Source: Psammoneis japonica (Eukaryota). From it: a DNA stretch of 64,000 bases. Shown one piece after another: positions 165 to 58,100 of the stretch; the stretch's first letter is position 1; every line of letters begins with the position of its first letter. The position numbers were made by a program, and so were the translations under genes. Under the pieces are notes generated by a model that had not been told where the DNA came from, made no database searches, and was given only the letters and a program-made list of their open reading frames with translations. Location: contig QPGO01000002.1 in assembly GCA_008632985.1 (NCBI GenBank), positions 434,001 to 498,000 on the forward strand, read 5' to 3'.

Positions 165-1918
165 CTCAGGCAGGACTCTGTGCAGCATGTGCGGGCCCGC
201 AGAATTTTGTGTGCCAGCTCTGCAACAAAGTTGTTGAGCAACAAACATGTGAGATGATTGACAACAGAAAAAGCAAGGCACAACTTTGCAGGCACATCTC
301 CTCCTGTGCCTGTGTGTGTTCTTTTGCACACCCAACCCACTTTTTTTTGTGCAGATGAAGAAAATGGAGAGCCTTTGGCTTCACAAGACAGGGTGCATGA
401 AACAATTGGGTGCACAAAAAATGTGTGTGTGCAGCATGTGGCACGATCCAAAAAATCTCATGCCACACTCCAGCACCAGCGCTGGGCCTCACCTGGAGCT
501 GGGGTGGGAGAAAGGCCCCGGCATGTGAGAATGGTGCCATGTGGAGCCAAATGTTGTGCCACAGAATCAGCAGCAATGACATGCATGTGCTCTTAAAATT
601 GTGTCAAAGCAAGAGTGACTTGTGCCACTCACTTGTTGTCTGCACAGCTTGACATGCCAAAAAAACAATGACATGGATTGACTCATCTTGTTGACTTTGC
701 ATTGCATTTTGCACAATCTGGGTCATCCACCACAATCTTGGTGCTCAAATTGAAGGTGTGAAACTTTTGCTGGTGCTGTGTGTGCTTTGTTTTCACCTCA
801 GTTGTGTGTGTCAAACAATTGTGCCCCTTTGTGCATGACACATGTCACAGGCTGCTGTGAGCAAGTCAAATTTGCAGACAGACATGCAGAGACTGTGGAG
901 CAACATGCAAGCCAAGAAGCAGCAGCCAACATGGCTCTGTTTGACAAAAACAGATGACCCCCAATGCAGAGGGGTGTGAAAAGCACAAGTGCAAGCATCT
1001 GGGTTGTGAGCTGCTCTCATGTGGTGGCGTGAGCTGAAAAGGTGGTGAGGAAAGAGGAAAAACTTTGGCCCCTGTTGACTCATGTGGCAGCTGTTGACAG
1101 TTTTTTGGAGCTTGGCAGCCATTGCTGGTGCAAGCCTGTGTGTGGAAGTGAGACAGTGTGGTGCTGCAGCAAGAGCCAGCTGGCACATTTAAACAGCCAG
1201 CTCAAAGATGATTGTTCCATGTCATGCCGGCACAGATGCAGAGCTGCACAACATTGTTGAAGAACAGAACAGAGCCCAAATTCAAGCTTGTCTTGCATCT
1301 TCTTGTTCAAGATTCAACGACTGGCAAAAAAATTCTTTTTCAATGAACTGATGTTCAAACGTTGTTTTGATTTTTTGTCAGTGAGGCACGTGCTTGTGTC
1401 ATGCAGGGTCCCCATCTTTTTGGCAAAAAAAAGTGTGTGGAATTTGATGAGGAGCAATTCTGGCAAAAATGCATGCCATCAATTGTCGTTGTCGTTTGTG
1501 TGGTGTGGCACTTTTGTTGGTGTGGTTGTGTCCTCCCTTGTCTGACACAGATGCACTCCAGCTCCAGCAGGTGGGACCTTGCACCACTGAACTGTGACAT
1601 CAAGAGGTTTTTGAATTGCGCTGCATGTTGTTTTTGAATTGCGCTGCATGTTGCACATGCAGATGGCTGCATGTGACATTCTACAAAATTGTTTCATGCT
1701 CCCTGTTTTGCAAAACCAAAGGCTTTCTGTCAAGAATGAAAGTGCACTGGGGGCACACTCTTTGATGTCTGCTTGAGTGTGAAGGAGGAGATGCATTTGC
1801 AAAATTGCTTCTTTTTCTGTTGGCGATCATTCACATTTTCATTGCTTGACAAATTCAGCGTGGAGCTTGCACACAGAATTCTGCGGGCCCAATGTCACAC
1901 GGAGCCCTGCTTGGGGCT
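165..1918. repeat. Diverged inverted repeat pair (~165-410 vs ~1686-1918)
   Basis: GGGCCCGCAGAATTTTGTGTGCCAGCTC (~193-220) matches the reverse complement of GAGCTTGCACACAGAATTCTGCGGGCCC (~1863-1890). CATCTCCTCCT and AGCCTTTGG...CAGGGTGCATGAAAC also match in inverted orientation. A related motif recurs at ~56225-56260. Confidence 0.7.
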
Positions 1919-8729: not shown

Positions 8730-10760
8730 CTACTTTGCTAGACTCAAAAGCTCCGGCCTCAAAAGGGATGGGATTGACTGGTGTGGTTTGATGGACTCCG
8801 GCATTGCTTCAGCAAGAGTGTCCACGGTCCATTCAGCATTCGTTTGTGCCAAGTAAATTGGACCTCCAAGAAAAGCAAGGGCGTGGGAACACCCATCTAC
8901 GACGGGGCACTCACACCTCGATCCAGGACACGGAACACAATCCCCTGTCTCCTTGTCAAATGCGACATAAACCCAACATGGGTCCGACTTCTGGGACGGG
9001 GTCACAAGCATGCGAAAGAGAACCACACTGCGTCCTGTCTCCTTGTGCCTTCCCTCTGTCACAGAGAAGGTGGCGACATTGCAGTTGCCACCATCAACAC
9101 GTCTGCAAGCATGGCACCTTGCGCCATTTCGCTTCTTCCGACACATTAGATTGTTGATCGATTCGTCGTCAATTTTCATTGCTCCTTGCACTCTTTGCAT
9201 GACATTTTCATGATCCCACTGCCACTGTTGCCCTGCTGGAGGTAGCATCACCTGCTCAATGGAAAAAGTTCCCGAATCTTTTCGTGACTCTGACAAGGAT
9301 CGTGGCACCGGCTGCAAACCGTTTGATCGTTTCATTTTGTCTAGAGTGGCCCGCACTGCTTCCTCAAGACGAGCCCTTGGGATGGTCCCAGCATGAGATG
9401 GTGGCAGGCTTCGCCGCTCCTGCAAAAAAGCTCTCATGCGGTCAACATCAAGGAATCCGATGGGAATGCCGCCTTTGTCTGGATCAACGTTGAGCTCCGC
9501 CAAGTGGCTGATCATGTGTCGGTTGTCGCATTGAGGATGTGGAATTGCCTCTTGCTCAATTGGCTTTCCTCCCCTTGCCCACATTTCCATTGAGAGCAAG
9601 GGATGGCAGTCAGAATTGTCCATGCTGTTGCTGTGTAGAATGTCGCCGAGGACAGCCGCCGGCGACTTGTCGCATCCCAGGCATCTTCCCCATCCCTCAC
9701 CACCATCCTCAGAAAATTGTGGGTGATCACATAATGGCACAAGCTCAATGCCACCATGTGCATCCTTGCTTGGCAGTTTTGACAAATCAATTGCATCTGA
9801 ACCTTCCTTTGGCAACAGCCGAAAGACTGGATGACCAAGGAACACATTCATGGCATGCCCAGCTTCCAACGCGAACCCTTTTGCAGGCTGCCCTCCGTCA
9901 TCAGCACCATGAGCTTTTGGTGGCCACTTACAATTGGTCTCAATGTCCTCTGGGTGCTTTCTCTCATCTGTGGCGGCTGTGCATCCATCCATCGTCTCGG
10001 CAAACGGCAAACTGTGTGGCTTGACGTTGTGGTCGCAGCCCCGAAAAGCAGGAACAGCACACTCACAGTCCTTCCAGCGCCCCCCGCCCGCACACACACG
10101 AGCATCAATTTGAGAAGCTGCCAAGATGCAGCAATCGCCATTGAAGGGGTTCAAGTTTGTGATCCATTTCTTACAATCGCACCCATGCACGTCACCATCC
10201 TCAGATTCCACGCATCCAACGATCCCAGAATTTTGCATCTCCACACACTGTGCTTCAGCTTCAACCGCAGCTTGAATGTAAGGCATTCCTTCTCGGTCAA
10301 ACACTTTCTTGATTAGAAGCATGATGTCTCCTCGAGGACAAACAATGCTCTTCCATTTGTTTGGCACCTCCAGTCAGTCTTGTTCAGGTTTGTTCTGCTC
10401 AAGAAGAAATGATGTTCTCTCCTCAATTGGCTTTTTCCTGGCCTTGCGCTTGGCATCCGTTCGCCATTTGAGTGGATTGTGTGTGCCATCAAATGCATGC
10501 ACAGCTTCAACGCCATTGTCTTTGTAGAGTCTCTTGTGTCGCCGCACCAACAATTTAGCAGCTTGGGCAACAGGTGTCTTCGGTGATGAATGGACTTGCC
10601 TGGCAGCTGTGGGGTCAATCAGAATCTTGTACAGTGGCATGGACATGTCAACTGCAACACTTTCTCCTCTCAGCTCTGATGGATTGTTCACCGGCTTGTC
10701 GTCAACAAGGTCAAACTCGGGCCGGTGCACAACATCAACACACACGTTCTCGATTGTCAT
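8730..10760 (-). pseudogene. XPG/FEN1/Exo1-family nuclease plus SWIM zinc finger, frameshifted
   Basis: XPG-N-like LRGESVAVDMS..LY...AFDG...PLK..T...R; XPG-I-like PYIQAAVEAEAQC...GIVGCVESEDGD; SWIM-like VTPSQK...WVYV...CECPVVDGCSH. Frame change near 10370. Confidence 0.75.
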
Positions 10761-19158: not shown

Positions 19159-19906
19159 CTACCACTCGTGGTCTTCCTCAACAGAGTTATCGGCATCTAG
19201 TTCACGATACTTGGTGGACCTTCCGCCCTTGGTGCTGCCGCCATAGCCCATGCCCTTGCTGCTGCCCTTGCTGCTGCCCTTGGTGCTGCCGCCATAGCCC
19301 ATGCCCTTGCTGCCGTAGTAACCGCCATAGCCCATGCCCTTGCTGCCGTAGTAACCGCCATAGCCCATGCCCTTGCTGCCGTAGTAACCGCCATAGCCCA
19401 TGCCCTTGCTGCTGCCCTTGCTGCTGCCCTTGGTGCTGCCGCCATAGCCCATGCCCTTGCTGCCGTAGTAACCGCCATAGCCCATGCCCTTGCTGCCGTA
19501 GTAACCGCCATAGCCCATGCCCTTGCTGCTGCCCTTGGTGCTGCCGCCATAGCCCATGCCCTTGCTGCCGTAGTAACCGCCATAGCCCATGCCCTTGCTG
19601 CCGTAGTAACCGCCATAGCCCATGCCCTTGCTGCTGCCCTTGCTGCCGTAGTAACCGCCGTGTGGCAAAACCCGATGATGAGATGCCTGGCGGGAACACA
19701 AGAAAAGTGGGACGAAAAGAAATTGAGAACATTGCCAAAAAACCAGCAAATGACCTCCTCTCGACGTCGTTGCGCACGGTGCCAAAAAGACTCACATGGT
19801 TCTCGGCTTCGTCGGTCACGTCACCACCAGGCTTTCCGAAACGAAGTTTCGACGCAGACGCCACAGCGAGGGAGGCAATGAGAACAAGGATGGCGGCGAT
19901 TTTCAT
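19159..19906 (-). CDS. Secreted Gly/Tyr/Ser/Lys repeat protein, cingulin/silaffin-like (~212 aa; exons 19796-19906 and 19159-19686)
   Basis: Signal peptide MKIAAILVLIASLAVASA. A GTGAGT...CAG intron at 19687-19795 joins the exons in frame. RVL and REL (RXL processing motifs) flank GGYYGSKGMGY/GGSTKGSSKG repeats. Confidence 0.85.
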
Positions 19907-25592: not shown

Positions 25593-26987
25593 CTAAACAT
25601 TGCTGTCAGGAGAGCCACCTCCGTCACCATTTAATTCATATAATTCTTGTGGTAACTCCCACAAGTCAAACCCCTTGAGATCATCGCGGTAACAATCGAG
25701 TCCACGGCCCTGTCTGTATCTCTCCAGGACGCGCTCACGAAGAGCAAAGGCAGCAGCTGGTCCATCCGTTCGATAAATGGCGAGATAAATGTCTTCGTAG
25801 ACCAAAAGTGCCATTCCGTGTTCATCTACATCGTTTGTGTCATCTCCAAACGGATCATCCAGAGCCATTGAGACATATTCAATGCCAATAAAACCAAAGG
25901 AAACGAGAAGGACGATGAATAGGGAACTCCAGATCCGATACTCTTTCAATAGCACCATCGGCAATGTGTACACCCAGAAAAAGAGAAAGGCGCGAGTCAT
26001 TTGTACCAACGGAAACGGATATGGCGTAAAGATGAGCACTCGAAAGCTGTGAAAGGCGTCGTTGAATATAGAGACGAAATTCATCAAATCTCTGTACTCG
26101 TTAACTGCCATCTTGTAACCGAGAAAATATGGGTGTTCCATTATGACTCGTTGCAACACATGTTGGAAAGTAATTGGCGCCCGAAAGTTTTCATCAATCA
26201 TGGATCGTCTCCCATGAGTGAGCTCACGAAATCGAAAGAAATGCTCCGAGACGTCATCGTCATCGCTGTCGCCCGGTTGGTACTTGAAATATTCTTCTTC
26301 CCACTTGTCTCGCTCGGTGGAACTCCATAGGAGGGCGTCCATGGTAACCCTCAAGAGCAGAATGGTGCGGTAGGATACATCTTGTCTCCATTGCTTTGCA
26401 TCTTCAGTTTGTGTTTGAAACGTGTAAACCGTCGCATACTGAACGAGTTCACGACAGCTCCGGTATGTGACAGCCAAGTGCCGTCTGAAATCCATGAATC
26501 TATCGTAAGAGATTTTTGATCGACTGACAATCAAGAACGATACCAACAAACCCATAAAGGAATGACCAATGGAGCTGTGAAATGTCAAATCGACTATATT
26601 GTTCTGCTTCAAAAAGACCACCATGAAGGTCCAACCAACATTGACGACGCAAAACGGCAAGACTTGAGGAAAGGCAGAGCCATACATTTTAAAGAGTACC
26701 TGAATATGGTTCTGAGCTGTATATGACACTCGGTGTACGCGATAGCCACTCTTCTTTTTGGGTTTTGTGTCGTCGAAACTGTTGCTATTTTGTTCATTGT
26801 TTCTTCGCTTTTCTGGAGTGAAAACTCGTAGAGATTTTTTCAATGGCGAATCTTCGCCAATCGCGACGTTGTCATCTGCAGCGTAAAGAGTCGGATTTCG
26901 CACAGAGGAGGTAGCTGCAAGTGTTTGACTATACAAACCCAATAGTGGATCGCTTTCGTCTCTGTAATGACGGCTCTTTTTCCCCAT
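25593..26987 (-). CDS. Bestrophin (UPF0187/RFP-TM) anion channel
   Basis: LLVSFLIVSR...SYDRF, TPYPFPLVQM, FGFIGIEYVSMALDDPFGDDTND; four hydrophobic segments. Start taken at MGKKS. Confidence 0.92.
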   Translation of the reverse strand: MGKKSRHYRDESDPLLGLYSQTLAATSSVRNPTLYAADDNVAIGEDSPLKKSLRVFTPEKRRNNEQNSNSFDDTKPKKKSGYRVHRVSYTAQNHIQVLFKMYGSAFPQVLPFCVVNVGWTFMVVFLKQNNIVDLTFHSSIGHSFMGLLVSFLIVSRSKISYDRFMDFRRHLAVTYRSCRELVQYATVYTFQTQTEDAKQWRQDVSYRTILLLRVTMDALLWSSTERDKWEEEYFKYQPGDSDDDDVSEHFFRFRELTHGRRSMIDENFRAPITFQHVLQRVIMEHPYFLGYKMAVNEYRDLMNFVSIFNDAFHSFRVLIFTPYPFPLVQMTRAFLFFWVYTLPMVLLKEYRIWSSLFIVLLVSFGFIGIEYVSMALDDPFGDDTNDVDEHGMALLVYEDIYLAIYRTDGPAAAFALRERVLERYRQGRGLDCYRDDLKGFDLWELPQELYELNGDGGGSPDSNV

Positions 26988-27849
26988 GGTGCCGAACAAC
27001 TCTCACAACTTCTGTTGTTTGGTGCGGAAGAAGTGAGAAAGAAGCAAGAAAAGCGTGGGGCGGCGGGTGGCGCGGGTTCCATCATCGCGCGCAAACTGCT
27101 ACCAGTAATGCGAAAGCGCGCCACAATGCAGCAAGCTTGGGTTTCTTGTTGTGCTGCAGCTGGAGCATCATGTGTGGCTCTCTTCCAGCCAACAGCATGG
27201 GTTGCTTTGCTTGTTTTCGACCAAATGCGCAAACAGCTGCCAGCCAGCCCAGAGCAAACTTGCTTGCATGTGCTTGCCAGTGCCTGCTGGAGCTGAGTTG
27301 TGCCTGTCACTGGCAGTCTTTCCTTGTTGACCTGCAAGAGAGGGTTGTTTGCAGAGCTGCCTGGGCCCTGCATGGTGTGTTGGCAGAAAAGCAAGAGAAA
27401 GGGAGCACCACTCGTTGGGGGGGGCATTGCCCTCAAAGGTCTCACAACAGCTCTTTTGCACACCAGGCATCATGTGGCAGCACACACTGTCTCTTTCTCC
27501 ACCAAGTTTTTTGCTGCCCTCCCTGCCTTCTTGCCAGAGCAGGTGTTGAAACAAAAACATTTTGGTGGGTGGTGGTGGCAACCAGCAGCAGCAGTGGCAG
27601 CAGCAAAAGTGTCATTGCCAAGAAATGGCTTTTTTTCATGTCGGTGTGGCAACTGGCTGCATGCAAAGCAGAGCAGGCTTGTGGCTGCCTCAAATCCAAA
27701 GAGAGGCTGGCCAGCTTGGCACTCAAAGCAAGAGATCCCCAAACCCTGCTCTTTGGCAGACCCACCTGGGGCTCTCATTGTGCTGCAGCTGGAGCACCCT
27801 GCTGCTTGCCAGCCACTCTCTTCCAACACGACAACTGGCCAACATCGCA

Positions 27850-28125
27850 TGACAGAAATTGAAGGCAAATGGCAAGAATTCAAACAACAACTCCTCACTG
27901 CTGTCTAAACAGCAGATGAGTCTCCGCTCAGAGACCGTTGCAGGAGCCGAAGGATGTGTGAGTCGGCACAATCGGGCTGCTGTTGTCATTCTTGTGAGCC
28001 TTGTGGCTCGAAAGCAAACTACATCGCGCGTGAACGCGTGGAACCAAAGCACACAAAACTGTGCACGGCAAACCAAACAGCGCGCGATGCTTCGCGCGCA
28101 CCTGAATCCTGTTCAAATCCTGTCA
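27850..28125 (-). repeat. 3' LTR (hypermutated copy)
   Basis: Aligns without gaps to 33552-33827 with 14 substitutions. Confidence 0.95.
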
Positions 28126-28139
28126 CTCCCCAGTTTGCT

Positions 28140-28510
28140 TGAGGAGCCACAGAAACAGATTCGACTTTGGATGGAATGAAGTTCCAGAACATGAGGGGGC
28201 GGAGAAGGTCCCAGATTTGGGAGCAACCCCAATGCTTGCTGAGAATGTCAGCAGGGTTGCGGGAGCCTTCGATGAAGTGGAACTCAAGGCAACCAGAGGC
28301 AATTGCCTCACGCACACGGTGGAACGACAGTGCGGTGTGTCGCTTGTGTAACTTGGAGTGTGGGATGGTGGCACTGTCTACAACCGACTTGTTGTCACCG
28401 AACATGCAACCAACGTTACGGATCGGGACGCCAAGGCAGCACAGGGTGATGCGCAGGTCGACAATCTGCTCAACACAAGTCCTTGCGGCAACAAATTCAG
28501 ACCCGTGATG
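28140..28510 (-). pseudogene. Copia RNase H C-terminal part
   Basis: HGSEFVAARTCVEQIVDLR...LGVP...CMFGDNKSVV...LHKRH.ALSFHRVREAIA...NPADILSKHWGC. Confidence 0.9.
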
Positions 28511-29616
28511 TTGTAGCTGGAGCCTTTCCAGGTTGGGTCGTGAGGCTTCAGAGGTCCTTCGTGTGACACGATGCGTCGAAATTTCCAAACAGTGGTGTCT
28601 TCGTCTTCTTGCTCAATGTGATTCATGATGTCATTGCAGGCAAGGACTTCCTCGTATTCGTCATTGTTGACAGAGCAGACGAACTTAGTGAGCTCGGGAT
28701 TGCCGTTCACTTTCCATTCATGGTCTTCGATGGCCTTGACGATGCGAGCTCTGTGGCGTTGTCCGTCCTCTTGTGGCTGCATGAGGAAGGTGCGTCCAAT
28801 GATGTCTTGCGGATCGAAAACTGGCATCTTGGGTGTCCTGATCTCCCCATCAGGAGAGTCGACGGGGTTGTCGTCATGGCGAGATTTGATGATGGGTTCA
28901 GGTGGCTCCCCATCAGGAGGATCAAGACGCAGGTTTCGGACGGCAGGATCGGGGGCAGCGGAGCGGATGTTGGACCGGCAGAGGATCTTCTGATTCTCGT
29001 CAGATAGAATCTTGAAGGTCATCTGGTGGCCGACGTGCTCAGCAATGCCAACGAAGCGTCCACGCAACTCACGGGATTCGGACGGCCAATCGGAGTCATC
29101 GAGGTGGAAGCACACGGGTTCCCACCAGTGAAAGCGAAGCAATGGGCTGATGTCCGGGGTGGAGCCAGTGAGAGTCTCAAGGGGCGTGCGCCAGTGGAGA
29201 CGTGGGGACGCTGCATGGTTGAGTGTGAAGCACACGCACATGAGCGCCAGCAGCCATGCATGGGCGGGCGAACCAAAACGATCCATGACAGTGTTCGCCA
29301 TGCGCTTCACGGTCTGGTGTCGACGCTCGGCAAAGTTTTGGTGTTGCTGGTGAGGCTCACTTTGCCAGCTAGAGATGAAGAGGGCGCGCAGGATCCCGAG
29401 CACTTTGTTGCTGATCTCAACTTGAGCACGGTCGCCAATGAGTTTGGATGGGGCACCACGTTCACGGATCTGATCCTCGAGTGTGTTGACAAACTCTTTG
29501 TCCGTCTTAGTGCCGTAGACGTCAGTGACGGCAGACTCGGTGCCAACAAACAGTTGGGCACTGGTGCAACCAGAGTCGACGGCCGGGGTGTCGGCATGAA
29601 CGGTGTCAGTGGCGAA
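28510..29616 (-). pseudogene. Copia integrase core and downstream linker
   Basis: ATDTV...AQLFVG...RGAPSKLIGDRAQVE...SEPHQQHQNFAERR...GRFVGIAEHVGH. Ends at WKGSSYNI, joined directly to RNase H. Confidence 0.9.
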
Positions 29617-29925
29617 GATCCTTGAACATGTGGGGTTCTTGACCGTTGACCGATGAACAGGCATGTCAAGGGATGAGGATCAAGGACAGACTTGGATGTG
29701 ACCGTTGAATGCATGTCTTCAGCGATCAAAGGTGGCACAATCAAACCAGATGTCCAGCGGTAAGGAGACTTGACGGTGACGTTAACTTCCTGCCGATGCC
29801 CTGGCATTGGATGCGCGTAGACTTGCCGATGCATGTAGAATGTGTGCGGAGGTCCACGCAGAATTGAAATGGCGTCGCTGGCAAATCAACGACGACGATG
29901 GCGGTTGCTCAATGGGTTGACAATG
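29615..29925. repeat. Internal duplicate of the element's 5'-UTR segment (33225-33535)
   Basis: Ungapped 311-bp alignment at an offset of 3610 bp. Confidence 0.93.
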
Positions 29926-32610
29926 TTTGGGGTTAGTGCCGTAGACGTCAGTGACGGTAGACTCGGTGCCAACAAACAGTTGGGCGCTGGTGCAACCAGA
30001 GTCGATGGCCGGGGTGTTGGCACAAACGGTGTCAGTGGCGATGGGCTCGTTGCGGCGGTGCACATTAAGGGCGGGGTTGGGTGATTTGCAGGCCTTGCGA
30101 AGGTGTGTACCGGCGGGCATGCGGGCGCACTGCGTGGTGCAGTCAAAAGTACGACGGACCGCATCGGCAGGCAGGAAGCCAAAGCAAGGCCGAAGAGACT
30201 CGAAGGGGGGGTCCTTGGGCTGTACAGTGCGCTCCGGAGGTGGAACATCATCGCCCTGGGGGCCAATCGCATGCAGATGACACTCGTAGAACACGTCGTC
30301 GTTCGGAATGAGGTGATCATCGAGGGCGGACGCGTGATCGGCAGACAAGGAAGCGGACATGATGGTCTCGTTGACAACGACACGATGACGGCAGTTGCCG
30401 CATTCATCAAACAGGTTGGCAGTGGGATCGTCCTGTGGGTCAGAGATCGCGTCGCACCACTGGTCGTCGTCAGTGACAGAGTGATCGAGGACGGAAGGGT
30501 CCCATGTGTCATCACCGGTGAGGATGACATGGGGCAGGGTGTCCCATTCGGCGTCAGTGTAAGGTCGCATGGCAACACAAGGCAGGCCAGCCTTGATGTC
30601 AATGGGGATGACACAGCCATCAGGAGTGGCAATGCGTTGCAAGCCGTTGGGCACCTTGACAGAGCAATCGTTGACATCCTGTTTGCACCATTCGAGCTGG
30701 CCGCAGGAATGGATGGTCTTGCCCTTGCCCGTGTGTGCGTGCTGATGGAGTGTGGCGATGACGGGACCACGCTGGGTCTCAACAACGGCGCCAGCGGTGA
30801 CAATGGGGATGTCCACCAATTGATGATCGTCAATGCCCTGAACGTCGACTTGGCGAGAGGTGCGTGCAATGACGCGAACGTCGTCGCCAGCAATGCCGCC
30901 GTTGGCCCCACGATCGACTAGAGCGCCAGTGCGTGTGGAGCGATGAGCAGAAGCAGAGTAAATGACATTGTGGTTGTCAACGCGGCGGCAAGTGCGACCG
31001 TCAAGTTCTGTGTCATCTGCAGAAGCTGGCGGGGTAGAGGAAGCGGCGGATGGCCCCAGTCGACTGGCATTGGGGGCTTGGTTAGGAGACAACAGACGTT
31101 GCAGATCACCGGGTGGCAGTGGCTTGCGCTTGGTGAGGTGCGCCAGGATGGGATCATCCGAAGTGGCGTCCACATGTGGAGCGGAGTCACCAGAGTCAGC
31201 AGGAGTCGTGTTGGACAAGTTGACATCACCGTCACTCCCAAGGCGTTGGTCGTGAAGGTTGGCCGTAACAGACTCATGGCAGTTGCTGGCTCGCGGGTTG
31301 CGGGGAGGTGGACGAGAATGCTCAAGGATGATCGCCTTGGAGGAATCGGGCAACGAATCCCAGAGCCATTGGTGGTCGGGAGGGAGACGTCTCCATTGGA
31401 CACCGGCGAGGCTGGGACCGCGGGTGCAGGCAGCATTGGCTTGAAGGACGTCAACATTGCTGTCAATGTCGTAGAACACATCGTCGGACGGTTCCTCGGA
31501 GCAGACGTCGTGTGCGTGTGTGGCGCGTCGGGGAGCTCGAGGTGTCGTCTTGGGTTGAAACGTGCTGTCGTGCTGAGCTGCGGCGGAGAGGAGCAAGCCA
31601 CAGCATTGATCGCATGTGAGGCTCTTGCCACTCTGCGTACGATGCTGATCAGCTTGGTTCTTGACAGCACGGAGTTCCTCGACAGGGTGCACGGCATTCT
31701 CGAGCATGACGCGCTTCTGTCCTTCAGAGAAGTGGTCACTGGCCGGGATGAGTGCCTCGCACTTGCGCAACTGATCTTGCCAATGAAGGATGAACCCGTG
31801 GGTCGGACCTTTCCAAGTGCCATCACCAAGACGCGCGGTGGTGAGGTGCATGAGCAGGGTGGAGGACTCGACAGATGCGCGGGTGGAGGCAAGCGCATGC
31901 TCAGACAAGGAGCGGCAGACGGTCTGTGCGTCAGAAGACCCCACATTTTCGCGAATGAGAGCCTTGCCCTTGTCGGTGAGAAGGATGCGTTCGAAGACGG
32001 CGAACATGCACTTTTGCTGTTCAGCAAAGAGCAGTTTGTCTTCGGGGCTGGTCGGTTTGTACGACGAGTCTAGAGTGCACTCGACGTCTTGGGCACGGGC
32101 TTGTGCCACAAGTGAGGTGTGCCAAGTGTGCCACTGCTTGTCGGATTTGAGAGCCGTGAAAGCGGTGGGATCACGCTTGATGCCTCGCTTGAAGTCCCGC
32201 ACCGGGTCGCGTGCCTTGGTCGGGTTGGTGACATGTGGAGGTGCAAGGGGTGAGCTGCCGATGGACACAGAAGACATGCAGTCGGGGCTGAGGCGGCAGG
32301 CAAGGAACTCGTCATGCGTGAACAAAGAGGAGTCGTTGGCAACGTCAAGACCTTTGTGTGCTTTGACAATGCACAGACTGACTGGTGCTGCTAACATGTT
32401 CTCATAACCACGGGGCAAAGGGATTGCATTGGCGCCGTTGTCGCGCTCAAGCGAGTCGATTTGGGACGGCATGAACGTGAACAGTTCCTGATGCGAGTCC
32501 GTGCCGTCTTGGGCCAAAGCCAAATGAAGAGGACTCCCAGCACCTTGGGCAAGCACGGTTCCAACCACGTGCTCGAAACCATCGGTTTGTTGCTGACGAG
32601 TGAGAACCAT
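29926..32610 (-). pseudogene. Copia gag-protease-pre-integrase polyprotein region
   Basis: Long ORF from MVLTRQQ with FKRGIKRD, protease-like ALVDRGANGG and LPHVILT...WDPSVLD. Breaks after TDVYGT, where a 5'-UTR copy is inserted. Confidence 0.88.
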
Positions 32611-33551
32611 GGTGGACAAAGGTGGTGTCAGGACAATCAATTCTGGTTGGGAAGCGAGGGCAGACTCGAAACTTGGGTGAGAACAGACTTGACTTGAAAT
32701 GGACTTGACTTGAAATCTTGAACTGTCTTAAAATCAGAAGTCGCCGGGCTTTGTTGTCCCGTTCGTTGTCAAGTGCTAAACTTCCCATCCGGTCCGCAGA
32801 GTTGTGCCGGCACGTCCGAACCCGCAGCCAGCGGCGCTTTGGGTTGCTTGCGAGCGGAGCAGCGGGTTGTAAACCCCTGCAGGTAAGCTGACCAGAGGTG
32901 GACAAGACCCCCGAACCGTTCTCATTTTATGTCGGTTGGATTTCCCGATCAGGCTGGCCAGTTGACGCAGGCGTCAGGCGCTGTGGACGAACGAACAAAC
33001 GCGGGAAAGCACCCTCGCCCCAACGCAGGCTGCAATCACGGCTGCCTGCTCTCACAGTCGTCCTCGTGGACCTAGCAGAACTGTAGAGCACCAGCAGTCC
33101 GGGGTAGATCAGGTGCAATGGACCCGGTGTGCTTGTAGAGTGGTGGCAAAACCGCAGTCCGAAGAGTGGATAAAGGTTCTTGGCCGTGAAGATATGTATA
33201 TATATATACATGTCTTCAGCGACTAAGATCCTTGAATATGTAGGGTTCTTGACCGTTAACCGAGGAACAGGTATATCAAGGGATGTTGATCAAGGATAGA
33301 CTTGGATATGACCGTTGAATATAAGTCTTCAGCGATCAAAGGTAGTATAATCAATCCAGATATCCAGCGGTAAGGAGACTTGACGGTGACGTTAACTTCC
33401 TGCCGATGCCCTGGTATTGAATGCGCGTAGACTTGCCGATGTATGTAGAATATATACGGAGGTCCACGTAGAATTGAAATAGCGTCGTTGGTAAATCAAC
33501 GACGACGATGGCGGTTGCTCAATGGGTTGACAATGAGCAAGACTGTTAATC

Positions 33552-33827
33552 TGACAGAAATTGAAGGCAAATGGCAAGAATTCAAACAATAACTCCTTAC
33601 TGCTGTCTAAATAGCAGATGAGTCTCCGCTCAGAGACCGTTGCAGGAGCCGAAGGACGTGTAAGTCGGTATAATCGGGCTACTGTTATCATTCTTGTGAG
33701 CCTTGTGGCTCGAAAGCAAACTACATCGCGCGTGAACGCGCGGAACTAAAGCACACAAAACTGTGCACGGTAAACTAAACAGCGCGCGATGCTTCGCGCG
33801 CACCTAAATCCTGTTCAAATCCTGTCA
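33552..33827 (-). repeat. 5' LTR (TA-intact copy)
   Basis: TG...CA termini; lies upstream of gag on the minus strand; retains 14 TA dinucleotides. Confidence 0.95.
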
Positions 33828-35012
33828 TCGCAGGATGAGCTGTCAAAGGTGCGAGCACTGACAGCCAGCCCAGAGAGAAGTGGCTTGCCTGTGCACACTT
33901 TGCTGGTGCCTGCTGGAGTTGAGTTGTGGGGGATCAACAGCTGCTTGCAGCCACATCTCACATGCTTCACAATGACGTCTTTGGACATTTCTTTTGGAGC
34001 CGCGCAACATGCTGGTTCGGTCGATGCAGCGCCGCAGGGCATGGGGTCAATGAAGGAAAATGGATTCAATGTTGTCCATGTTGAGCTCATCTTCCAACAC
34101 CCTCTTTGCACTTTCAAATTCTCTGATTCCCAGTGTGCGTCACTCTGCAGTGTCCGAAATGCAACTCGGCATTCATCTGGTGCATGGGAAGCACAGCGTC
34201 AGACAACATTTGACCCAGTTTCACGCCATTTCTCCACTCTTGACATTTGGCACAAGAAATCTTGCTTCCAAAATGCCAATGACAGTTGGCCACAACAGGA
34301 AAGACTCGTGTCATTCGGGGGGGCTGCAGACGAAGCCCGAGCGTCTTTTTGCTTTTCAGCACGCAGTGAGGTGCGACCACACCGGTGCCTGCGAGACTGG
34401 CGGCAACCATGTGATGCCATCGAACCTGGGATAAAATGGAGGAACACGCCATTGTGATCACTGGTTTTTGTTGAGTGTCATTCTGCATGTGAGGGGAAGA
34501 GACAATCGCTTCCATTTGCTTCATCAACTCAATGTGACGGGGCAGGGAAGCAGGCATCAGTGGTCAGTGGATTGAATGACGTGTTGCAAAGTCGTGTTTG
34601 CCACATTAAACTGCCTCTCCAGCCAGCTAGAGCAGAGAGTCTACAAGGATGGAAACAGAATGAATCATTGATTGTGAAGCGTGTGCGCCACAGGTCGGCC
34701 GAAAGGATGGTGGATGCTGCTCATGACTGCATTGATTTTTGATCACCCTGCCGTCTGACCATTTGCTTGCATGATGGCAGCTGAGCCCTTTTCTGAGCTT
34801 CACAATTTTCCTGCTTGTTGTGCTTTGGCGATCTTGTCCAACAACCCGCACGGCCACAAGATTTCCCACGATGGCAAAAATGCCAATCTTTTAGACTAAC
34901 GCAACACGTCCAATCCCAACAATGTTCAAAGACCAACACCAAGCTTGCCATTTCTATTTTTAAACATGCACGCTAGTCTACTTTGAATCTTTGACCCGAG
35001 TGTCTTTCATCT

Positions 35013-35354
35013 TCAATTGATCATCGTGTCTTTCTGCCTGCTTCTTCGTGGTTTGATTCGATGTCTTTGCCATTCTTCCACATGGCTCTTTTCCTTTTTG
35101 TTTACATTGGCCCAAGGGGGGGAGTACGTATTTGTGTCCTTGTCATCCGGCACTGGCAACACCTTTTTCCTCTTCCAAAAGGGCAATCGTCGTTTCTTTG
35201 GCGGATCAACATCGGGTGCCACAATGTCAGGCTCATCGGGCGGCGGCAACGGAGGCGCAGATTTTGGTGGAGGAGGACGTTCTGCTTGGACGTTGCTAAT
35301 GACAAGAAGAAGTAGAAACGCAACCACCCAGACGACGTATGATCGTGACAACAT
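35013..35354 (-). CDS. Small secreted Pro-rich protein, short paralog of 37051-37821
   Basis: Signal peptide; shares QAERPPPPK.APPLPP, PFWKRKKV and YSPPWANVNKKEK with the paralog. Confidence 0.7.
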   Translation of the reverse strand: MLSRSYVVWVVAFLLLLVISNVQAERPPPPKSAPPLPPPDEPDIVAPDVDPPKKRRLPFWKRKKVLPVPDDKDTNTYSPPWANVNKKEKSHVEEWQRHRIKPRRSRQKDTMIN

Positions 35355-37050
35355 GGCCTGTGATATGACTTTGGACTGCTTCGGTAGTACTATGGGTTTG
35401 TCGATTGAGGTTTGATCGACGACATTGTGTGTCGTCAGTGATGCTTCAGCAAGTTGAATATTTCACCTTGAAGGGCAAGGATACGCGCGTGCGGTTGGAT
35501 CTCGGGCGTAGGGAAGCCATTTCGGATTGTAAGTCTGAGCTCGTCCAGTAGCCCTACATCTTCTGTTCCTCGTGCGTCTAGCAATTTTCCACTGTTGTAC
35601 AAGTGTTGTATGTACGGTACCGTACCGGTAGACTCTCTCACTCTCTACTCTAGAGAGAGAGATGGAGTCTAGTTCTACAAATAATCTGTACTGTACCACA
35701 AGAGTTTGTCCAACGTTCTCAGTTCTCAGTTCCCCTAAACACAAACGGAAATGCTCATAGGTCTCACTCTAGCTCTACGGTAGAGAGGGTCCTACTTAAA
35801 ACTCTAGCTAGAGAGTAGAGATCACCAGCAGAGTACAGATCGCTTCAGCACAAAAAACAAGAAACATTTTGAACGAAAACATCATTAAAAAAATCAAAGA
35901 TGCCCTCCAAGTCGGGCGAGCCTGACCGACGATGTCGCAACCTTAGCTCCGCCCCGACGGCGGTAATTTTTGTTGTCTTCATTTATTGCACAATGCCGGC
36001 AGCGGAAGGCCCTCATTGTCTGCACCAGCTTTATCTTTATCATGGTGTTGCGATGGTGTTAAAAAAATCTATGCTCAAACGAGGTCAAATGGAGCCACCG
36101 TACCGGTACATGTCTGATGTCTGCGCTAGAGTCTATCCGAGACGAGCAAGCACAATTCGCACTTTTTGATTCGCCAAGTTGACAATGACGTAACCATTAG
36201 CTAGCTCGAAAAGAAGAGCCACGGGTTTGGAAGATGTTGTGCTGCGGCTCGCAATGAGATGACTTACGGCCAAGGCTATTGGAACCGCAATTAGTAGCTG
36301 CAAAGGACGGAATAGTATGTTATCGTCCGGAGACCTTTGGAAGCAGATTTGTCAGTAGATTTGTCTCAATACTTATCCAACAAGTACTGTGCGGTTGAAA
36401 ATTGTATCGCCATCAATAGCGCAGTATTTATCCGAGACATAAAGCCAGGGGGGCCTCCATGCACAGCCACCCTCCCGATTGACAGCATCTTTGCCGTCGT
36501 CGGGCTTTTCACTGTTAAGAAATCGCCAGAGAATAAAACGAGCAGCAAACATCGACGAGTCGACATTGCTTCATGAACCTGTGATAAGCTTCAAACCATG
36601 TGTTTATGAAAATACCAAACACAGGTGTTGTTGTTGTTCCAGTCACAAATTCATACGAAACCAAACCGTATCCTTCTTCACATGAATTCAAAGAATTCAG
36701 TCAGTGAAACTCGGTGACGATATCTTGGGCGTCGCCCTTCCTTCATCGGTAGGAGTCCGTTCTTGTGTAGAAATCCGTTGGATGTCTTGTCCGGGAGAGC
36801 ATCATATCTGCGGCTTAAATTGACTCTGTTTCGCCGCGACGACATGAGATCGGTCTAAAGTCTACGCAAAGGCCGCCTTGTCGAACACAAAAATCACGTG
36901 GTCGCCAAGGAAGACTTTCGATTCCCTTTTTTAACCACAGAAAGTAGTCATCTTGGGAACGAAACTTTTCTATTGTAGACTACTGGTACTTTGGACTTGT
37001 CTCCAGCTAAACGGTCCCTTGTCGTTGAGCACTGCTCCTTCGTTTGATTC

Positions 37051-37821
37051 CTATTCCCATTCTTCCACGTAGTTCTTTTCCTTCTTGTTCACATTTGCCC
37101 AGGGAGGAGAATATGCCTTTGTGTCCATATCATCGGGTTCAGGGGCCACCTTTTTCCTTTTCCAAAAGGGTTTTCGTCGTTTCGGTGGCGGTTCCTCGTC
37201 AGGCACCACAATGTCTGGTTCTGAATTTCGGCTCGTCATTATGGAACTAGAAGAGCTTTCTTGTCTTACAGTCTCCTCTTTGATATTCGTTTTGACGTTC
37301 TGCCGATCCATCGTCACCCGTTTCAACTCAGCCCACCGTCGGCTCGCTTCTTGCTTTTCAACATTCGGTTCTGTTTTTCCTTTTCGGTATTCCCACCAGC
37401 TCTCCTGCTTTTGTTCCAACGTAGGCCGCTGAGTTGATGCTGGCTCTGGAACTCGTAATGGCACTGGTTCTGGTACTACCTGTGCTTGTTTGCGTCCCAA
37501 AAGTGCTAGTAGGAGTCGCAACAGCTCTTCACGAAGCAACATGGCTAAAGCACCCACAATCGCACCAACAAGCGTCGTCGTAAGAGCTTCCTTCAGAGGC
37601 TTCGTATTGCTGCGTCCAAGAAAGAACGCAGCACCAATACACCCACCGGTTAATCCACCTGATACTACCAGAGCATCAATCTGCTTTGCTTGCGCTTCTT
37701 GAACCTCATTGGGTGGCAAAGGCGGAGCAGCTTTTGGCGGAGGAGGACGTTCCGCTTGGCCATTGTTTAGCACAAGAAGTAGAAAGGCAATGACCCAAAC
37801 GACGAAAGATCTCGAAAGCAT
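37051..37821 (-). CDS. Secreted/membrane Pro-rich protein with two Gly-rich TM-like segments
   Basis: 256-aa ORF with signal peptide; paralogous to 35013-35354. Confidence 0.75.
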   Translation of the reverse strand: MLSRSFVVWVIAFLLLVLNNGQAERPPPPKAAPPLPPNEVQEAQAKQIDALVVSGGLTGGCIGAAFFLGRSNTKPLKEALTTTLVGAIVGALAMLLREELLRLLLALLGRKQAQVVPEPVPLRVPEPASTQRPTLEQKQESWWEYRKGKTEPNVEKQEASRRWAELKRVTMDRQNVKTNIKEETVRQESSSSSIMTSRNSEPDIVVPDEEPPPKRRKPFWKRKKVAPEPDDMDTKAYSPPWANVNKKEKNYVEEWE

Positions 37822-38214
37822 GGCTTATGGCGTGTCTTTTGATTGATTTAAAGGGACCTTTTGTGGTGTCCTCAGAATTTTCCCTCGCAGATGTGGCGCA
37901 GACTTCTCGGGATTGAAGATGCGTGCTTGGTATTGGTCCACGTGAGGATCCCGTAGGATTCTCCAATGGATATTCGACAAAAAAGCAATCTTTCCCAAAT
38001 TTTCATATATTTTTTATTTTTCCAGAATACTTCAAATTATGATGAAAAACAGTTGAAACATTGATGACTAACCTTATCCTCGCTCAAGGATACCGGTACA
38101 CCCTTCACTCTAACGACAACCTGAGTCTATCCTACAAGATCAACTCTATGGTACTAAAATAATTCTAGTGTACTCCTTCTACAGAATAGAGCGAGTTGAC
38201 GATCAGTGTTGTTT

Positions 38215-55129: not shown

Positions 55130-58100
55130 TCTCAGGTGAACAACAGCTGGCTGGCTGGCTGTGCTGTTCGACAGTCATGCTGTGTCATGGTCACCACAAA
55201 CTGCTGCCAACAGAGGAGCACCTCCATGACACAGTGCTCCCCCCCTCTCTCTTTTATGGGTTTGTCAAAGTTTTTGTTTTGATGTGGGAGTCTCAACAAT
55301 TGCCAAATTGGCTCTCATGTGCAAGCACACGACAAAAATCAGCAAAACAAAGGCCACAGCTCTTTTTGGTCGGCAAGGCTGCACTCTGGTGTGGTGCTTG
55401 AGAAGAGCCAGTTGTGCCATCTCAAGATGGCTGCATTGTGGCCAGGCTGTGAGAGCATCAGTGTGTCACACAGACCCAGCTTGGGAGCCTCAATGCTGAT
55501 TTCTCAGCATCGAAATGACAAGAGAGAAAAAACCCAAGAGGGAGAAGTCGTTGGTCATTTTTGACATGTTCTGGTCAACAAATCCTTGCAAAATTTTCAC
55601 CACAATCAGACCCATCATGACAAAAACTTGCCCCATGTTGCTGCTCTTGCGCCGAGCCAGCAATCACCTCACTTGCCTCATGTTTGTTTGTCTTTGTGTC
55701 AGGTCTTCCACATTTTTCATTTCATTGCAGTTTTTGCAGGTCAACTTTTCTTGACAACTTTTGGTCAGTTGGGTCCCACAATGGTGCCAGCACCATTGGA
55801 CATCCACTGGAATGAACACAACCCATGCTGCTGCTCTTGCAAAAAACAAGACAGTGCCCCAGATGTCTCACGCTTGTCTTTTTGTTGCAGCTGCCCACAT
55901 TTTTCATTTTGTGCCAACATTCTTCATTTTTCCCCACTCAACTCCCTTGAATTGTTCACACAAGTCCTGTCACTGAACAAACACACAGGCTGCTTCAAAG
56001 CTGCACTCTTTTTTGAAAAATTGAGGTGGCCAGTGACTCATGCAACCTGGCAACAATGAGTCACTTTTCAACCCAACAAAACTGAGCAGTTTTGCAAAAA
56101 GGATTTTTGTTTTGGGGCCATTTCTGAGAACAAAAATCTGGACTGGACAGTGCAAACATGTGCAGGGTTTGCCTCTTTTTCTGCAGGAGGTAACCATTGG
56201 TTTTTCACTGCAGAGTTCATGCGCGGAACTCTGCAGGCCCAATGTCACATGCCCCCCCTGGGCTCCAACATCTGTCTGCTCTCGACCTCCTCCTGGTTCC
56301 ACAGCACCCTTTGCAAGTGGTCCCTTGTGATGTGGGTGTGGGTGATGTGTGATGACATCATCACATGCATTGAGTTGGATGCATTCATGCGCTGGCAAAC
56401 ATGCATGTGTCATTGAGCAAAAACTCCCATCCACAGCACCCCCAAATCTTGAGTCACCTGGAACCAACTGCACAGCTGAAGACACTTTTGGGCCATTTCC
56501 ACACCACAAAATAAGCACACATCAACTTGACTCATCCATGATGATGTCTTGTGATTCTTCCTCAATGCCTTTGCAGGACACCATTCCTGCACTGTTGCAA
56601 ATGACACTGGTGCAACAGGTGACATCATCAACTCTGTTCTGAATGGCCTGATGCATGCAAAACAAGATGCTGCCAACTCACACTGTCATTTCCTTGCCAA
56701 ACTGCCTCCCACAGATGCTGTCACAAATGCCAATGCTGTCCCTGCATTTTTTTGACTGACATGCCCAGTGCCATTGCTCACACCCTCAGTGCAACAGGTG
56801 CTGTTGATGCTGTTGTTGACTTGTGCCAACGACATCTGCAACTAAATGGCGCCAACTCCTCACACTGTTTTTTGTTCTCACTCCTTTGCCTCTCACAGGC
56901 ACAGTCACAAATGCCACAATGCTGACACCCCCCCCATCACCCCAACCCCTCCCAACGCTGCCACACCCTGCACAGATGGCAACCCACTTGCTCCAGCAGG
57001 CAGGATGGCATCCCTTGGTTACATTTCTCACAGTGCAGAAGACATGACCAAGCTCTTGGCACCGCTCAAGATGCCATTTTCCAAGGCAAGCCAGGCATTG
57101 GGTGCATGCCGCTGCGAACACTCTTGGTGTCTTTGTTGACACCAGTTGCTGACATTGGAGACGTGATCATGACTGAGACTTTGCCAGTGCATCCCCAACT
57201 GTGGAGGAATGGAATGAGCACTTGGCAGATTTGCACAAGCAGTCCAGTGTGCATTGATTGTCTCATTGTGCTTTTTTGGCCAAGGAGTGCAATCCCCGAA
57301 TGCCTTGGACAGTTGTGAGTTGGTGAGGGTGTCAGATGACTCCATGTCGGGTTCTTGACCAGCTGAGTTTGTCGACTCTGAGCATTCTTCAAACAAGATT
57401 CTAACCAAGGATTTAGTCGAGAAGAGGAATCACATTCTGTGGACTCTGCAAGCACCTCGGTGTGCCATCTGAGTTGAAATTGTGCGCAGGACATCAGATG
57501 TTGAACTCTAAAAAGATGCTCTTCAATGCAAAAGGCGAGGTCTGCGAATTGTGCTGCCAACCCACCTTCTGCTCCTGGAGAGCAACAGTTGAAGCTAGAA
57601 GCAGTCTTGTGCTGCAACAACAGGTGCTGCAGACCAAAATGTGCAACAGCGCAAGTGTCAAAATGGAGAAAAAAAGTGCAATGTTGAGAAGCACATCCTT
57701 TTGGGTCTCATGGCACCAACTTCTGTCCAAACATTTCACAAGGTGTGAATGACAAGGCCTCAGACAAACAACTGTGACAGCCAATGGCATTGACAGTGGT
57801 GAACAAGGAAGAGAACATGTGAGTTTTCCCACAGTTTGGAGGCTCATGGACACACAGCACTGGGCAGAGACCTGCCACCAAAAGGCTTGGCAACTTTGCA
57901 CAGTTCTTTGTGGCTGTTGAAAAGCTCTTCACAGCCATTTTCCAAACCCCTGCAACATCGCAAACAAGGGATTTGGTGCCACCAATGGGTCGGAGCGACA
58001 AGCAAGAAAGAATGGGTGTTTTGGTTCTGTGTTGATGCAAGGATGCCAAACCCTGTGTCTTGCTGCCAAGCATGAGGACGCTTGCCAAAGACATCAACAG

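Follow-up and report, generated by a model that had tools for sequence, protein, structure and literature searches.

A host process very probably converts T:A to C:G at TpA steps in the integrated mobile DNA of this diatom-like genome, and we place the probability of this reading at roughly 85%. The process is defined here by its direction, its TpA specificity, its action on both strands, its timing after insertion, its flank preference, the lack of same-strand runs and the frequent sparing of about 650 bp at the 5' end of the element. The evidence comes from one rearranged retrotransposon in the window (the whole stretch of 64,000 nucleotides that was analysed), from the other copies of its family and from homologs.

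The element and its duplicated codon

The host of the duplicated codon is identified by its structure as a young, dead Ty1/copia element (Table 1), in which all hallmarks of this group, i.e., TG...CA LTRs, target-site duplication, primer-binding site and polypurine tract, are present. Its homologs (50-67% identical) carry PF07727 (RVT_2) downstream of the integrase region, which places the integrase upstream of a copia-type reverse transcriptase, the region deleted in the studied copy. The direct matches suggesting that this region encodes an integrase were weak (a PDB integrase, E=0.025; Atlas clusters in which 13-52% of the members carry rve/SH3_retrovirus), none of the Pfam families was matched in the three ORFs of the element, and the downstream region is presumably RNase H, a name given from its position. 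Tyr makes up 0.8% of the gag-pol ORF vs a median of 3.9% in the homologs.

Table 1. Features of the studied element and their positions in the window
Feature	Position	Strand	Remarks
Ty1/copia LTR element, whole	27850-33827	-	LTRs, target-site duplication, PBS, PPT
Target-site duplication, 5 bp (TCGCA), 3' side	27845..27849	.	same letters at 33828-33832
3' LTR, 276 bp, TGACA...TGTCA	27850..28125	-	2 TA remaining
RNase H-like C-terminal region	28022..28505	-	Cys for Tyr in CMFGDN and HWGC; alignment to 93/120 homologs
Polypurine tract GGGGAG preceding 3' LTR	28126..28131	-	read off the sequence
Junction of ~1.56-kb deletion, by position reverse transcriptase region	28505..28506	-	~1.56 kb present in other copies; junction once in assembly
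Putative integrase region	28506..29615	-	frame differs from upstream ORF; homologs, weak PDB and Atlas matches
Repeat of 109 bp, downstream copy	29507..29615	-	
CAT (His), derived from TAT (TA to CA)	29596..29598	-	copies and homologs
Inserted 310-nt copy of family 5' UTR	29616..29925	-	4/25 TA remaining; other subfamily than the element's own UTR
Junction filler, 7 nt	29926..29932	-	absent elsewhere in element; junction once in genome assembly
Repeat of 109 bp, upstream copy	29933..30041	-	
gag-pol ORF reaching integrase start	29933..32610	-	stop-free
TGT (Cys), derived from TAT (TA to TG)	30022..30024	-	copies and homologs
Own 5' UTR segment	33226..33535	-	most TA kept (protected)
Primer-binding site	33537..33551	-	with the LTR's last base, complementary to tRNA-Asn(GTT) nt 27-42
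5' LTR	33552..33827	-	14 TA remaining (protected)
Target-site duplication, 5 bp (TCGCA), 5' side	33828..33832	.	same letters at 27845-27849

The preliminary description had reported a repeat of about 108 bp at the integrase start, which proved to be real, the two copies of 109 nt being 94% identical; since a microhomology of 1 nt makes up the final base, 108 bp is an equally valid length. All six differences between the repeat copies fall into two kinds, three bases of TA to CA/TG and three of CG to CA/TG, and those of the TA type comprise both bases of the duplicated codon and the pair 29532/29958. The 317 nt separating the copies, which that description had missed, consist of the 310-nt piece of 5' UTR and the 7 filler bases. 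Of the 28 differences of the insert, 21 were TA to TG/CA and none was the reverse, and four diagnostic sites agreed with the other UTR haplotype. Judged from its sequence, the studied element arose by recombination between two parents, and the duplication probably arose via template switching between two family RNAs in reverse transcription, which would have given one codon two independent chances of mutation. It is unlikely that the duplication and insert stem from a chimeric assembly or from repair at the DNA level. Both rearrangement junctions are single-copy in the assembly, no listed contig from two DNA runs of one sample spans them, and the backbone sub-lineage is identical on both sides of the insert, as such an origin would have it; however, the insert, whose end lies 1 nt away from the primer-binding site, derives from another subfamily and bears the filler, the target-site duplications of the rearranged element match, and the lack of private background changes speaks against a noisy consensus. 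Contigs of the two DNA runs differed mostly by A>G/T>C/C>T/G>A, and no RNA sequencing run was among those listed as containing the sequence. The family-level TA result is independent of how the duplication arose.

On the minus strand, the codon after ATDTV indeed reads CAT in one repeat copy and TGT in the other, for which TAT had been favoured over CGT as the common ancestor. In 29 other genomic copies the codon was TGT (22), CAT (5) or TAT (2) and never CGT, the TGT share being inflated by the choice of these copies as the best scorers to a TGT-containing query. The position was found to be aromatic, as had been expected, with Tyr in 85 and Phe in 29 of the 117 homologs, Cys, His and Ile in one each and Arg in none, so that neither Arg, Cys nor His was seen as the normal state of intact homologs. 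Although CpG decay is present (three of the six repeat differences and 57 of the 435 LTR-pair differences), a CGT ancestor from which CpG deamination made both states has a negligible chance and is refuted by the copies and homologs just given, and CG made up 13 of 8252 states at TA columns.

Three RNase H motifs had also been thought to have lost a Tyr, and two of these stand: the homologs have Tyr in 93 of 93 cases at the Cys of CMFGDN and in 76 of 92 at the Cys of HWGC. The third, HGSEF, was rejected as a point mutation. The homologs have Tyr at its His in 85 of 85 cases, but the His codon (28507-28505) straddles the deletion junction, which creates it, and its first letters match the upstream side. 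When columns with Tyr in at least 70% of homologs were taken as Tyr columns, the element retained five of 27, vs 444 of 486 other conserved columns (Fisher p=2e-17). The replacements were Cys (13), His (5), Phe (3) and Trp (1), in a tally that counts the duplicated codons twice and includes the junction artefact as one His. The expected replacements of Tyr (Y>C, 984; Y>H, 418) and Ile (I>V, 109; I>M and I>T, 59 each) were found among the copies at TA columns, in codon tallies that cover part of the ORF; the stop in these tallies comes from the reading frame of the copy used for coordinates. The suggestion of TA to CA/TG on both strands is thereby supported by the Tyr columns, the copies and the LTR pairs. 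Outside the genome, one of 120 homologs (P0083) has a like loss of Tyr.

TA loss across the family and the spared 5' end

Thirty-nine loci were fetched from 312 candidates, chosen for their likeness to the studied copy, and six of them, which were without two LTRs (L038, L039, L044, L046, L056 and L066), were left out of the LTR analyses. The 254 TA columns across 34 copies contained TA 3390, TG 2960 and CA 1889 times, CG 13 times and other states 16 times, i.e., 4849 TG/CA states vs 16 other non-CG states. The studied copy had lost 90 of its 122 body TA sites and had 0 private background changes in 3466 sites; for the family, the private background was 288/154,437 (0.0019) vs a TA hazard averaging 1.11 per site, and a TA mutation rate of about 600 times background is estimated from these values. 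Pairwise sharing of TG/CA states varied a little more than in permuted data (sd 0.062 vs 0.054; maximum 0.93 vs 0.86), so that a part of these states may have been inherited or near-duplicates may be present among the loci.

Since two parents contributed to the element, the duplicated codon alone is no proof of mutation after insertion, and the proof is given by the differences between paired LTRs. In 34 pairs, 214 of the 435 differing bases were TA vs TG/CA and 132 were TG vs CA, i.e., 66 sites mutated in opposite directions; besides the CG-type differences, the remainder comprised 20 other transitions and 12 transversions. The target-site duplications were identical in 29 of the 34 copies. 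The change is made on DNA, after insertion, specifically at TpA and on both strands. A>G per A was 0.294 at TA vs 0.005-0.0065 after A, C or G, and both CA and TG were held by 93 of 166 body columns in the seven closest copies. In a context model, TA loss was raised 2.4-2.6 times by a 3' pyrimidine and about 1.7 times by a 5' A.

It is improbable that this pattern is the footprint of error-prone repair synthesis of the polymerase eta type at silenced DNA. Pol eta is described as making WA hotspots in somatic hypermutation (PMC6423074), and repair triggered at T:G mismatches would fit the coupling to CpG decay; yet neither of its hallmarks, a raised AA as well as TA and strand-coordinated patches, was seen, A>G after A (0.0065) being close to the values after C and G and 45 times lower than that at TA, same-strand clustering of TA changes being absent in 8 distance bins (|z| <=1.2), and non-transition states being so few. 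The absence of same-strand clustering also counts against a processive enzyme on single-stranded DNA. Pre-integration editing, ADAR-like on the RNA of the element or APOBEC-like on its cDNA, might be suggested by the target, a retroelement, and by the small sense-strand excess in the context model (sense/antisense 1.24, 1.03-1.49), but it is refuted as the main cause and barely credible, for the strands are hit almost equally and without same-strand runs, paired LTRs are mutated in opposite directions, and TA is also depleted in 33 of the 64 1-kb bins of the window and in most copy flanks. Classical RIP, with TA derived from CA/TG, involves the same three dinucleotides, but its chance is negligible and outgroup polarity refutes TA as the derived state: the affected columns hold Tyr (TAY) in homologs of other origin, a single column holding both CA and TG would need two ancestors, and the repeats are TA-depleted, not TA-enriched.

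The first ~650 bp of the element, comprising the 5' LTR and the UTR, are frequently spared. TA was retained 176 times in the 5' LTR vs 38 in the 3' LTR, and the 5' LTR had lost fewer TA in 26 of 34 copies (five reverse, three ties; p=4e-5) in a test from which loci found with a 5'-end query were left out because such a query selects TA-rich 5' ends. CG too was kept more in the 5' LTR (41 vs 16, p=0.001). The UTR sequence inserted in the element body was not spared, and sparing is not universal, 14 of 32 copies having lost 36-90% of their UTR TA sites; it was weakly linked to the UTR haplotype (p=0.048). That the 5' end is spared only because it lies next to genes, at the margin of a mutated domain, is largely refuted and retains a slim chance. 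The 3' LTR loss showed a weak trend with the nearest flank (rho -0.33, p=0.055), but the TA sparing of the 5' LTR was unrelated to the TA content of the flank (rho -0.06), the 5' flank was TA-depleted in 30 of 34 copies, TA loss was 0.43 at the 5' vs 0.64 at the 3' LTR where both flanks were depleted (n=23), and the spared stretch 33001-33750 of the window sits between depleted ones. The depletion of the flanks may be older than the insertion.

TA loss co-varies with CpG decay both between copies and along the element, and across copies it correlated with private CG loss (rho 0.62). As a clock it was rejected, its correlation with background divergence being non-significant (rho 0.15) on small counts of 0-24 per copy. 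TA o/e was 0.41-0.59 in eight host ORFs of the window vs 0.13-0.17 in the element ORFs; an XPG-like ORF (8733-10373), which we take to be possibly a mobile-element gene, was TA-depleted (0.14). Six metagenome loci of relatives showed ordinary values (0.59-0.66). Frames of up to ~1900 aa stay open here.

Proposed mechanism and its implications

In the host process that we propose, changes would be made singly, site by site, on either strand, after insertion. It would be aimed by silent, CpG-methylated chromatin, as the co-variation of TA loss with CpG decay suggests, and the 5' LTR-UTR would escape when in an open promoter state. A change on one strand would destroy TpA on both strands, which makes TG and CA exclusive end states, and the elements would be loaded with Tyr>Cys/His and other missense changes, no stops being made. 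Given such a process, its likeliest chemistry, at about even odds, is deamination of A to inosine by a TadA/ADAT-like enzyme. Nine PF00383 and five PF14437 deaminase profile matches in the genome read as housekeeping types, none tied to the process, and an ADAT2-like gene (L081, called from motifs) is present, as expected in any eukaryote. A modified base, either T (oxidised and mispairing with G) or methylated A, in place of plain adenine deamination is somewhat unlikely. Oxidised thymine can mispair with G; TpA is self-complementary, sequence does not discriminate between A and T as the attacked base, and no processive runs were seen, all of which such a base would allow. A Tet_JBP profile search of the genome gave no match, and its control was likewise silent.

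A wider proposal is made tentatively, at less than even odds: diatoms may possess a natural defence that edits adenines in DNA and takes its direction from silent, CpG-methylated chromatin. Such a defence would strip young retrotransposons of most of their TpA ahead of ordinary substitutions, kill them through a Tyr>Cys/His load with an open frame, be kept off active promoters, be shared in kind with Rhizaria and, judging from homolog P0083, occur in at least one further organism. If it exists, a natural DNA adenine deaminase would matter for base editing, and the flank rule is useful for finding the enzyme. The chromatin link is testable through the protected 5' end and the coupling to CpG decay. 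LTR dating, dN/dS and 'intact ORF' calls are misleading in such genomes because LTR pairs are several percent apart in copies with hardly any background change, and because frames stay open in dead copies.

Comparison with known systems

RIP of ascomycete fungi converts C:G to T:A, mostly CpA to TpA, and creates stops; it is a premeiotic process that depends on RID and is set off when repeats pair. The process described here resembles it in making dinucleotide-specific transitions on both strands of repeats, in inactivating transposons and in sparing single-copy genes, but its direction is opposite (TA to CA/TG) and the frames stay open. The two identical LTRs of an element are mutated to different extents, so that homology alone does not set the dose.

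Engineered TadA (ABE8e) is reported to leave A>G off-targets at TA (PMC13225742), like the A>G / T>C at TA in genomic DNA seen here; ABE8e is engineered, whereas a natural DNA-acting homolog is hypothetical here. The element shares TG/CA-ended LTRs and target duplication with the diatom Ty1/copia elements of the CoDi groups described by Maumus et al. (PMC2806351), and, through its homologs, RVT_2 downstream of the integrase region; unlike them, the studied copy bears a UTR insert in its interior and is without the reverse transcriptase region. These authors also report that LTR elements of diatoms are methylated (PMC2806351).

TpA hypermutation was found in print once only, in a 2026 preprint on the rhizarian alga Bigelowiella natans, in which integrated DNA of NCLDVs and virophages is described as hypermutated specifically at TpA (Mettrop et al., bioRxiv 10.64898/2026.01.13.699255); in the literature searched, which includes few subscription journals, there was no report from diatoms. 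According to the preprint, which also mentions RIP, a like spectrum arose de novo in mutation-accumulation lines, and TpA-poor CDS were enriched for RT and DDE domains. Both systems change TpA to TpG/CpA on both strands, nearly all changes being transitions and confined to foreign DNA, and T:A to C:G transitions, TpA restriction and spared host genes were all found here. The rate given for B. natans is hundreds to a thousand times background, and the ~600-fold value here derives from the TA hazard and is not direct. The hosts differ, rhizarian vs diatom-like. In B. natans the process was seen directly on two viral regions, the larger one single-copy, whereas here it was deduced from a young multi-copy LTR family with most TA sites removed. 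Promoter sparing, the flank rule and CpG coupling were found here and are not reported in the available part of the preprint. A young high-copy family offers built-in before/after controls, and our results extend mutation-based defence, in much greater depth, to transposons in a diatom-like genome.

Duplicated codon and LTR pairs

The two LTRs of an element are identical when it is inserted. Both were recovered in 33 of the 39 fetched sister copies, which with the element in the window (the reference copy) gave 34 pairs, and the 435 differing bases comprised 214 of TA versus TG/CA, 132 (66 sites) of TG versus CA, 57 of CG type, 20 other transitions and 12 transversions. In the reference copy, 12 of the 14 LTR differences were TA losses (TpA to TpG or CpA), every one in the 3' LTR. 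These LTR pairs prove that mutation took place after insertion. The preliminary description had argued from one codon, altered in two ways in a duplicated integrase start, for TA->CA/TG on both strands; the 66 TG-versus-CA sites repeat this two-way argument within single insertions.

The duplication, put at ~108 bp, measured 109 nt at 94% identity, its six differing bases being three TA-derived and three CG-derived, and on the minus strand the codon 3' of ATDTV was indeed CAT in one repeat copy and TGT in the other. In 29 other genomic copies this codon was TGT (22), CAT (5) or TAT (2), in 34 full-length copies, reference copy counted, TGT (25), CAT (6) or TAT (3), and both TGT and CAT were present among the seven closest relatives of the reference copy. 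Among the protein homologs (120 listed of 451 found by protein search), the column (n=117) held 85 Tyr, 29 Phe and one each of Cys, His and Ile. With CGT in none of the 29 copies and Arg in none of the 117 listed homologs, the earlier preference for TAT over CGT as ancestor holds, and CpG decay is rejected as the origin of the codon states. The element retained Tyr in only 5 of the 27 columns with at least 70% Tyr in the listed homologs (replaced by 13 Cys, 5 His, 3 Phe and 1 Trp), as against 444 of 486 remaining conserved columns (p=2e-17). Of the RNase H motifs said to have lost Tyr, CMFGDN (Tyr in 93 of 93 listed homologs) and HWGC (76 of 92) were borne out, and HGSEF was discounted because its His codon straddles a deletion junction. 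The observation is thus confirmed and the TA->CA/TG reading supported.

Spectrum and possible agents of TpA loss

At 254 TA columns in 34 copies, a list ascertained in that the columns were defined by these same states, we counted TA 3390, TG 2960, CA 1889, CG 13 and others 16. Within TA, 0.294 of A had changed to G; where A, C or G precedes the A, the value was 0.005-0.0065, and this is an upper bound, as inherited variants count towards it. In the body of the reference copy, 90 of the 122 TA sites are gone, although none of 3466 sites shows a private background change. For the family as a whole, 288 background changes in 154,437 sites compare with a mean hazard of 1.11 per TA site, which is ~600 times higher. 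A competing-risk fit on 183 columns gave effects of x2.4-2.6 for a pyrimidine 3' of A and ~x1.7 for A 5' of T, with the sense strand favoured 1.24-fold over the antisense (bootstrap 1.03-1.49), and no strand coordination of neighbouring TA losses was found among copies. Within the portion of the ORF that was analysed, 2064 out of 2658 changes were non-synonymous, the 61 Tyr-type columns took a median of 44.5 hits per copy, and Tyr codons were the least retained of all classes (0.29), a pattern that gives no hint of purifying selection. Many copies retain an open frame of 1200-1990 aa.

We consider DNA-level, post-insertion, TpA-specific mutation the cause, with a probability of about 0.85. Given such a process, adenine deamination by a TadA/ADAT-like enzyme would be the leading chemistry, at roughly even odds, because the spectrum is purely transitions and the TA preference is that of engineered TadA off-targets, according to the accessible part of PMC13225742. 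A route through modified T or methyl-A is rather unlikely. Synthesis by Pol eta could also be proposed to leave the footprint, but it is disfavoured because AA, which together with TA makes up the WA hotspots of Pol eta in somatic hypermutation (PMC6423074), is not elevated here. RNA or cDNA editing as the main cause of TA loss is rejected, since LTR-pair sites changed in opposite directions. The deaminase genes in the assembly are, by motif, presumably of dCMP deaminase, organellar TadA, ADAT2, guanine-deaminase-like and RibD types, and none of those found is implicated in TA loss. One frame, at locus L080, joins a nucleoside-deaminase domain to a putative oxygenase domain, which we take from its motif to be of 2-oxoglutarate/Fe type.

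Spared regions, rearrangement and surroundings

TA o/e (observed/expected) was below 0.2 in 33 of the 64 1-kb bins of the window and at least 0.4 in 28, and eight host ORFs had 0.41-0.59. The first ~650 bp of the element were often spared (TA retention 0.47-0.75 versus 0.20-0.45 in the body). The 5' LTR held TA in 176 of 214 informative LTR differences (p=2e-22) and had the lower TA loss in 26 of 34 copies, independently of flank TA content (rho -0.06); where both flanks were depleted (n=23), loss was 0.43 in the 5' and 0.64 in the 3' LTR. Loss in the UTR was bimodal, at most 0.16 in 18 of 32 copies and 0.36-0.90 in the other 14. The reference copy has 25 TA in its UTR in place and 4 in the UTR piece within integrase (21 changes to TG/CA, 0 reverse), an imperfect positional control because the insert belongs to another haplotype, which in place is, if anything, oftener protected. 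Since the 3' LTR and the inserted UTR are unprotected, neither LTR nor UTR sequence alone is protected. In copies L041, L047 and L073 the UTR beside the 5' LTR is interrupted, rearranged or missing and 5' LTR loss is 0.53-0.67; these three unprotected 5' LTRs fit a need for LTR plus UTR.

LTR pairs kept 41 CG in the 5' and 16 in the 3' LTR, CpG decay was 0.02 in the first 625 bp versus 0.03-0.06 elsewhere, and TA loss and CpG decay were correlated across copies (rho 0.62). Because this decay parallels TA loss, and LTR elements of diatoms carry CpG methylation that is lost when they are activated (PMC2806351, accessible part), we infer that silent chromatin may be the target and that open promoters would escape. 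The flanks of the fetched copies (L037-L075) were mostly TA-depleted (median o/e 0.08 and 0.13), which may reflect insertion preference, survival bias or spreading.

Sister copies are mostly ~7.1 kb long; the reference copy lacks ~1.56 kb, RT by position, and has 426 extra bases. Its duplication was absent from all 29 other loci checked, and each of its two junction patterns (duplication/insert; deletion) occurs once in the assembly. The spacer between the repeat copies consists of 310 nt of 5' UTR and a 7-nt filler, carries the other UTR haplotype, not the element's own, at four diagnostic sites, and has its UTR end 1 nt away from the primer-binding site. At all seven non-TA sites, 16 of 36 loci had the common form of the spacer haplotype and 14 the element's own form. 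The simplest reading would be template switching between two family RNAs in minus-strand synthesis; as two parents were involved, the duplicated codon taken by itself suggests mutation after insertion but does not prove it. Along the element, copies show a mosaic of subfamily markers, and recombination is frequent in this Ty1/copia family. Many copies (L043, L044, L047, L066 and L073 among them) have private internal duplications, inversions or deletions. The primer-binding site has its complement in nt 27-42 of tRNA-Asn(GTT), in the anticodon arm and not at the 3' end, which suggests that reverse transcription may be primed by a cut tRNA-Asn fragment; the word 'tRNA' is absent from the accessible text of the CoDi paper (PMC2806351).

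The insertion went into an older repeat: the DNA on either side of the element is TA-erased and has short matches in common. The XPG-domain gene either belongs to a mobile element or is a host-type gene caught by the mutation, the long inverted repeats probably represent DNA transposons that have decayed, or foldback elements, and the paralogous gene pieces are diverged duplicates spared by TA loss.

Features in the window (G000:C3:434001-498000, in the 91.4-Mb assembly) and, where a locus is named, elsewhere in that assembly
Feature	Position	Strand	Remarks
LTR retrotransposon	33827 to 27850	minus	276-bp LTRs, 5-bp target duplication, polypurine tract
Integrase repeat copies	29507-29615; 29933-30041
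Deletion junction	28505/28506
Primer-binding site	33537-33552
tRNA-Asn(GTT) gene	L117:1471-1544
Deaminase-oxygenase frame	L080:313-1785	minus
Element flanks	27001-27849; 33830-34750		matches 27237-27273 with 33858-33894
Bestrophin ORF	25596-27002		sharp border with TA-erased flank
XPG_I-match ORF	8733-10373	minus	547 aa; TA o/e 0.14, Tyr 0.5%, Cys 5.1%; TA-erased block
Tandem array	19192-19663		33-bp period, within open frame, edge of first TA-erased block
Long inverted repeats	56590-58649; 193-1890		up to 164 nt, ~80%; TA-erased blocks
Paralogous gene pieces	35067-35381; 37054-37848		75-80% identity; TA-normal DNA

Comparison with other organisms

One of the 120 listed homologs, P0083 (JGI source), had 0.9% Tyr and 4.0% Cys, the 119 others having at least 2.9% Tyr; it retained 3 of 22 conserved Tyr, with 9 Cys and 7 His. 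Its best match in the assembly was 59% among 56 scored of 1243 candidates, and it is therefore probably from another organism. This copia-type homolog, a single sequence at the protein level that shares the loss of Tyr to Cys/His, probably marks another organism in which the process operates. The window is diatom-like in its type of element and in the Atlas taxa. No report of TpA hypermutation in a diatom came up in the literature searches. The TA loss of P. japonica is not fungal RIP, which is rejected as the change runs from TpA to TpG/CpA, with Tyr predominant in the listed homologs. In Bigelowiella natans, integrated viral DNA undergoes TpA to TpG/CpA at ~1000x background, and ADAT was proposed as the agent, according to the accessible part of a preprint (Mettrop et al., bioRxiv 10.64898/2026.01.13.699255). 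The process in P. japonica appears to work alike, and all four sequence-level features described there for B. natans are seen here too.
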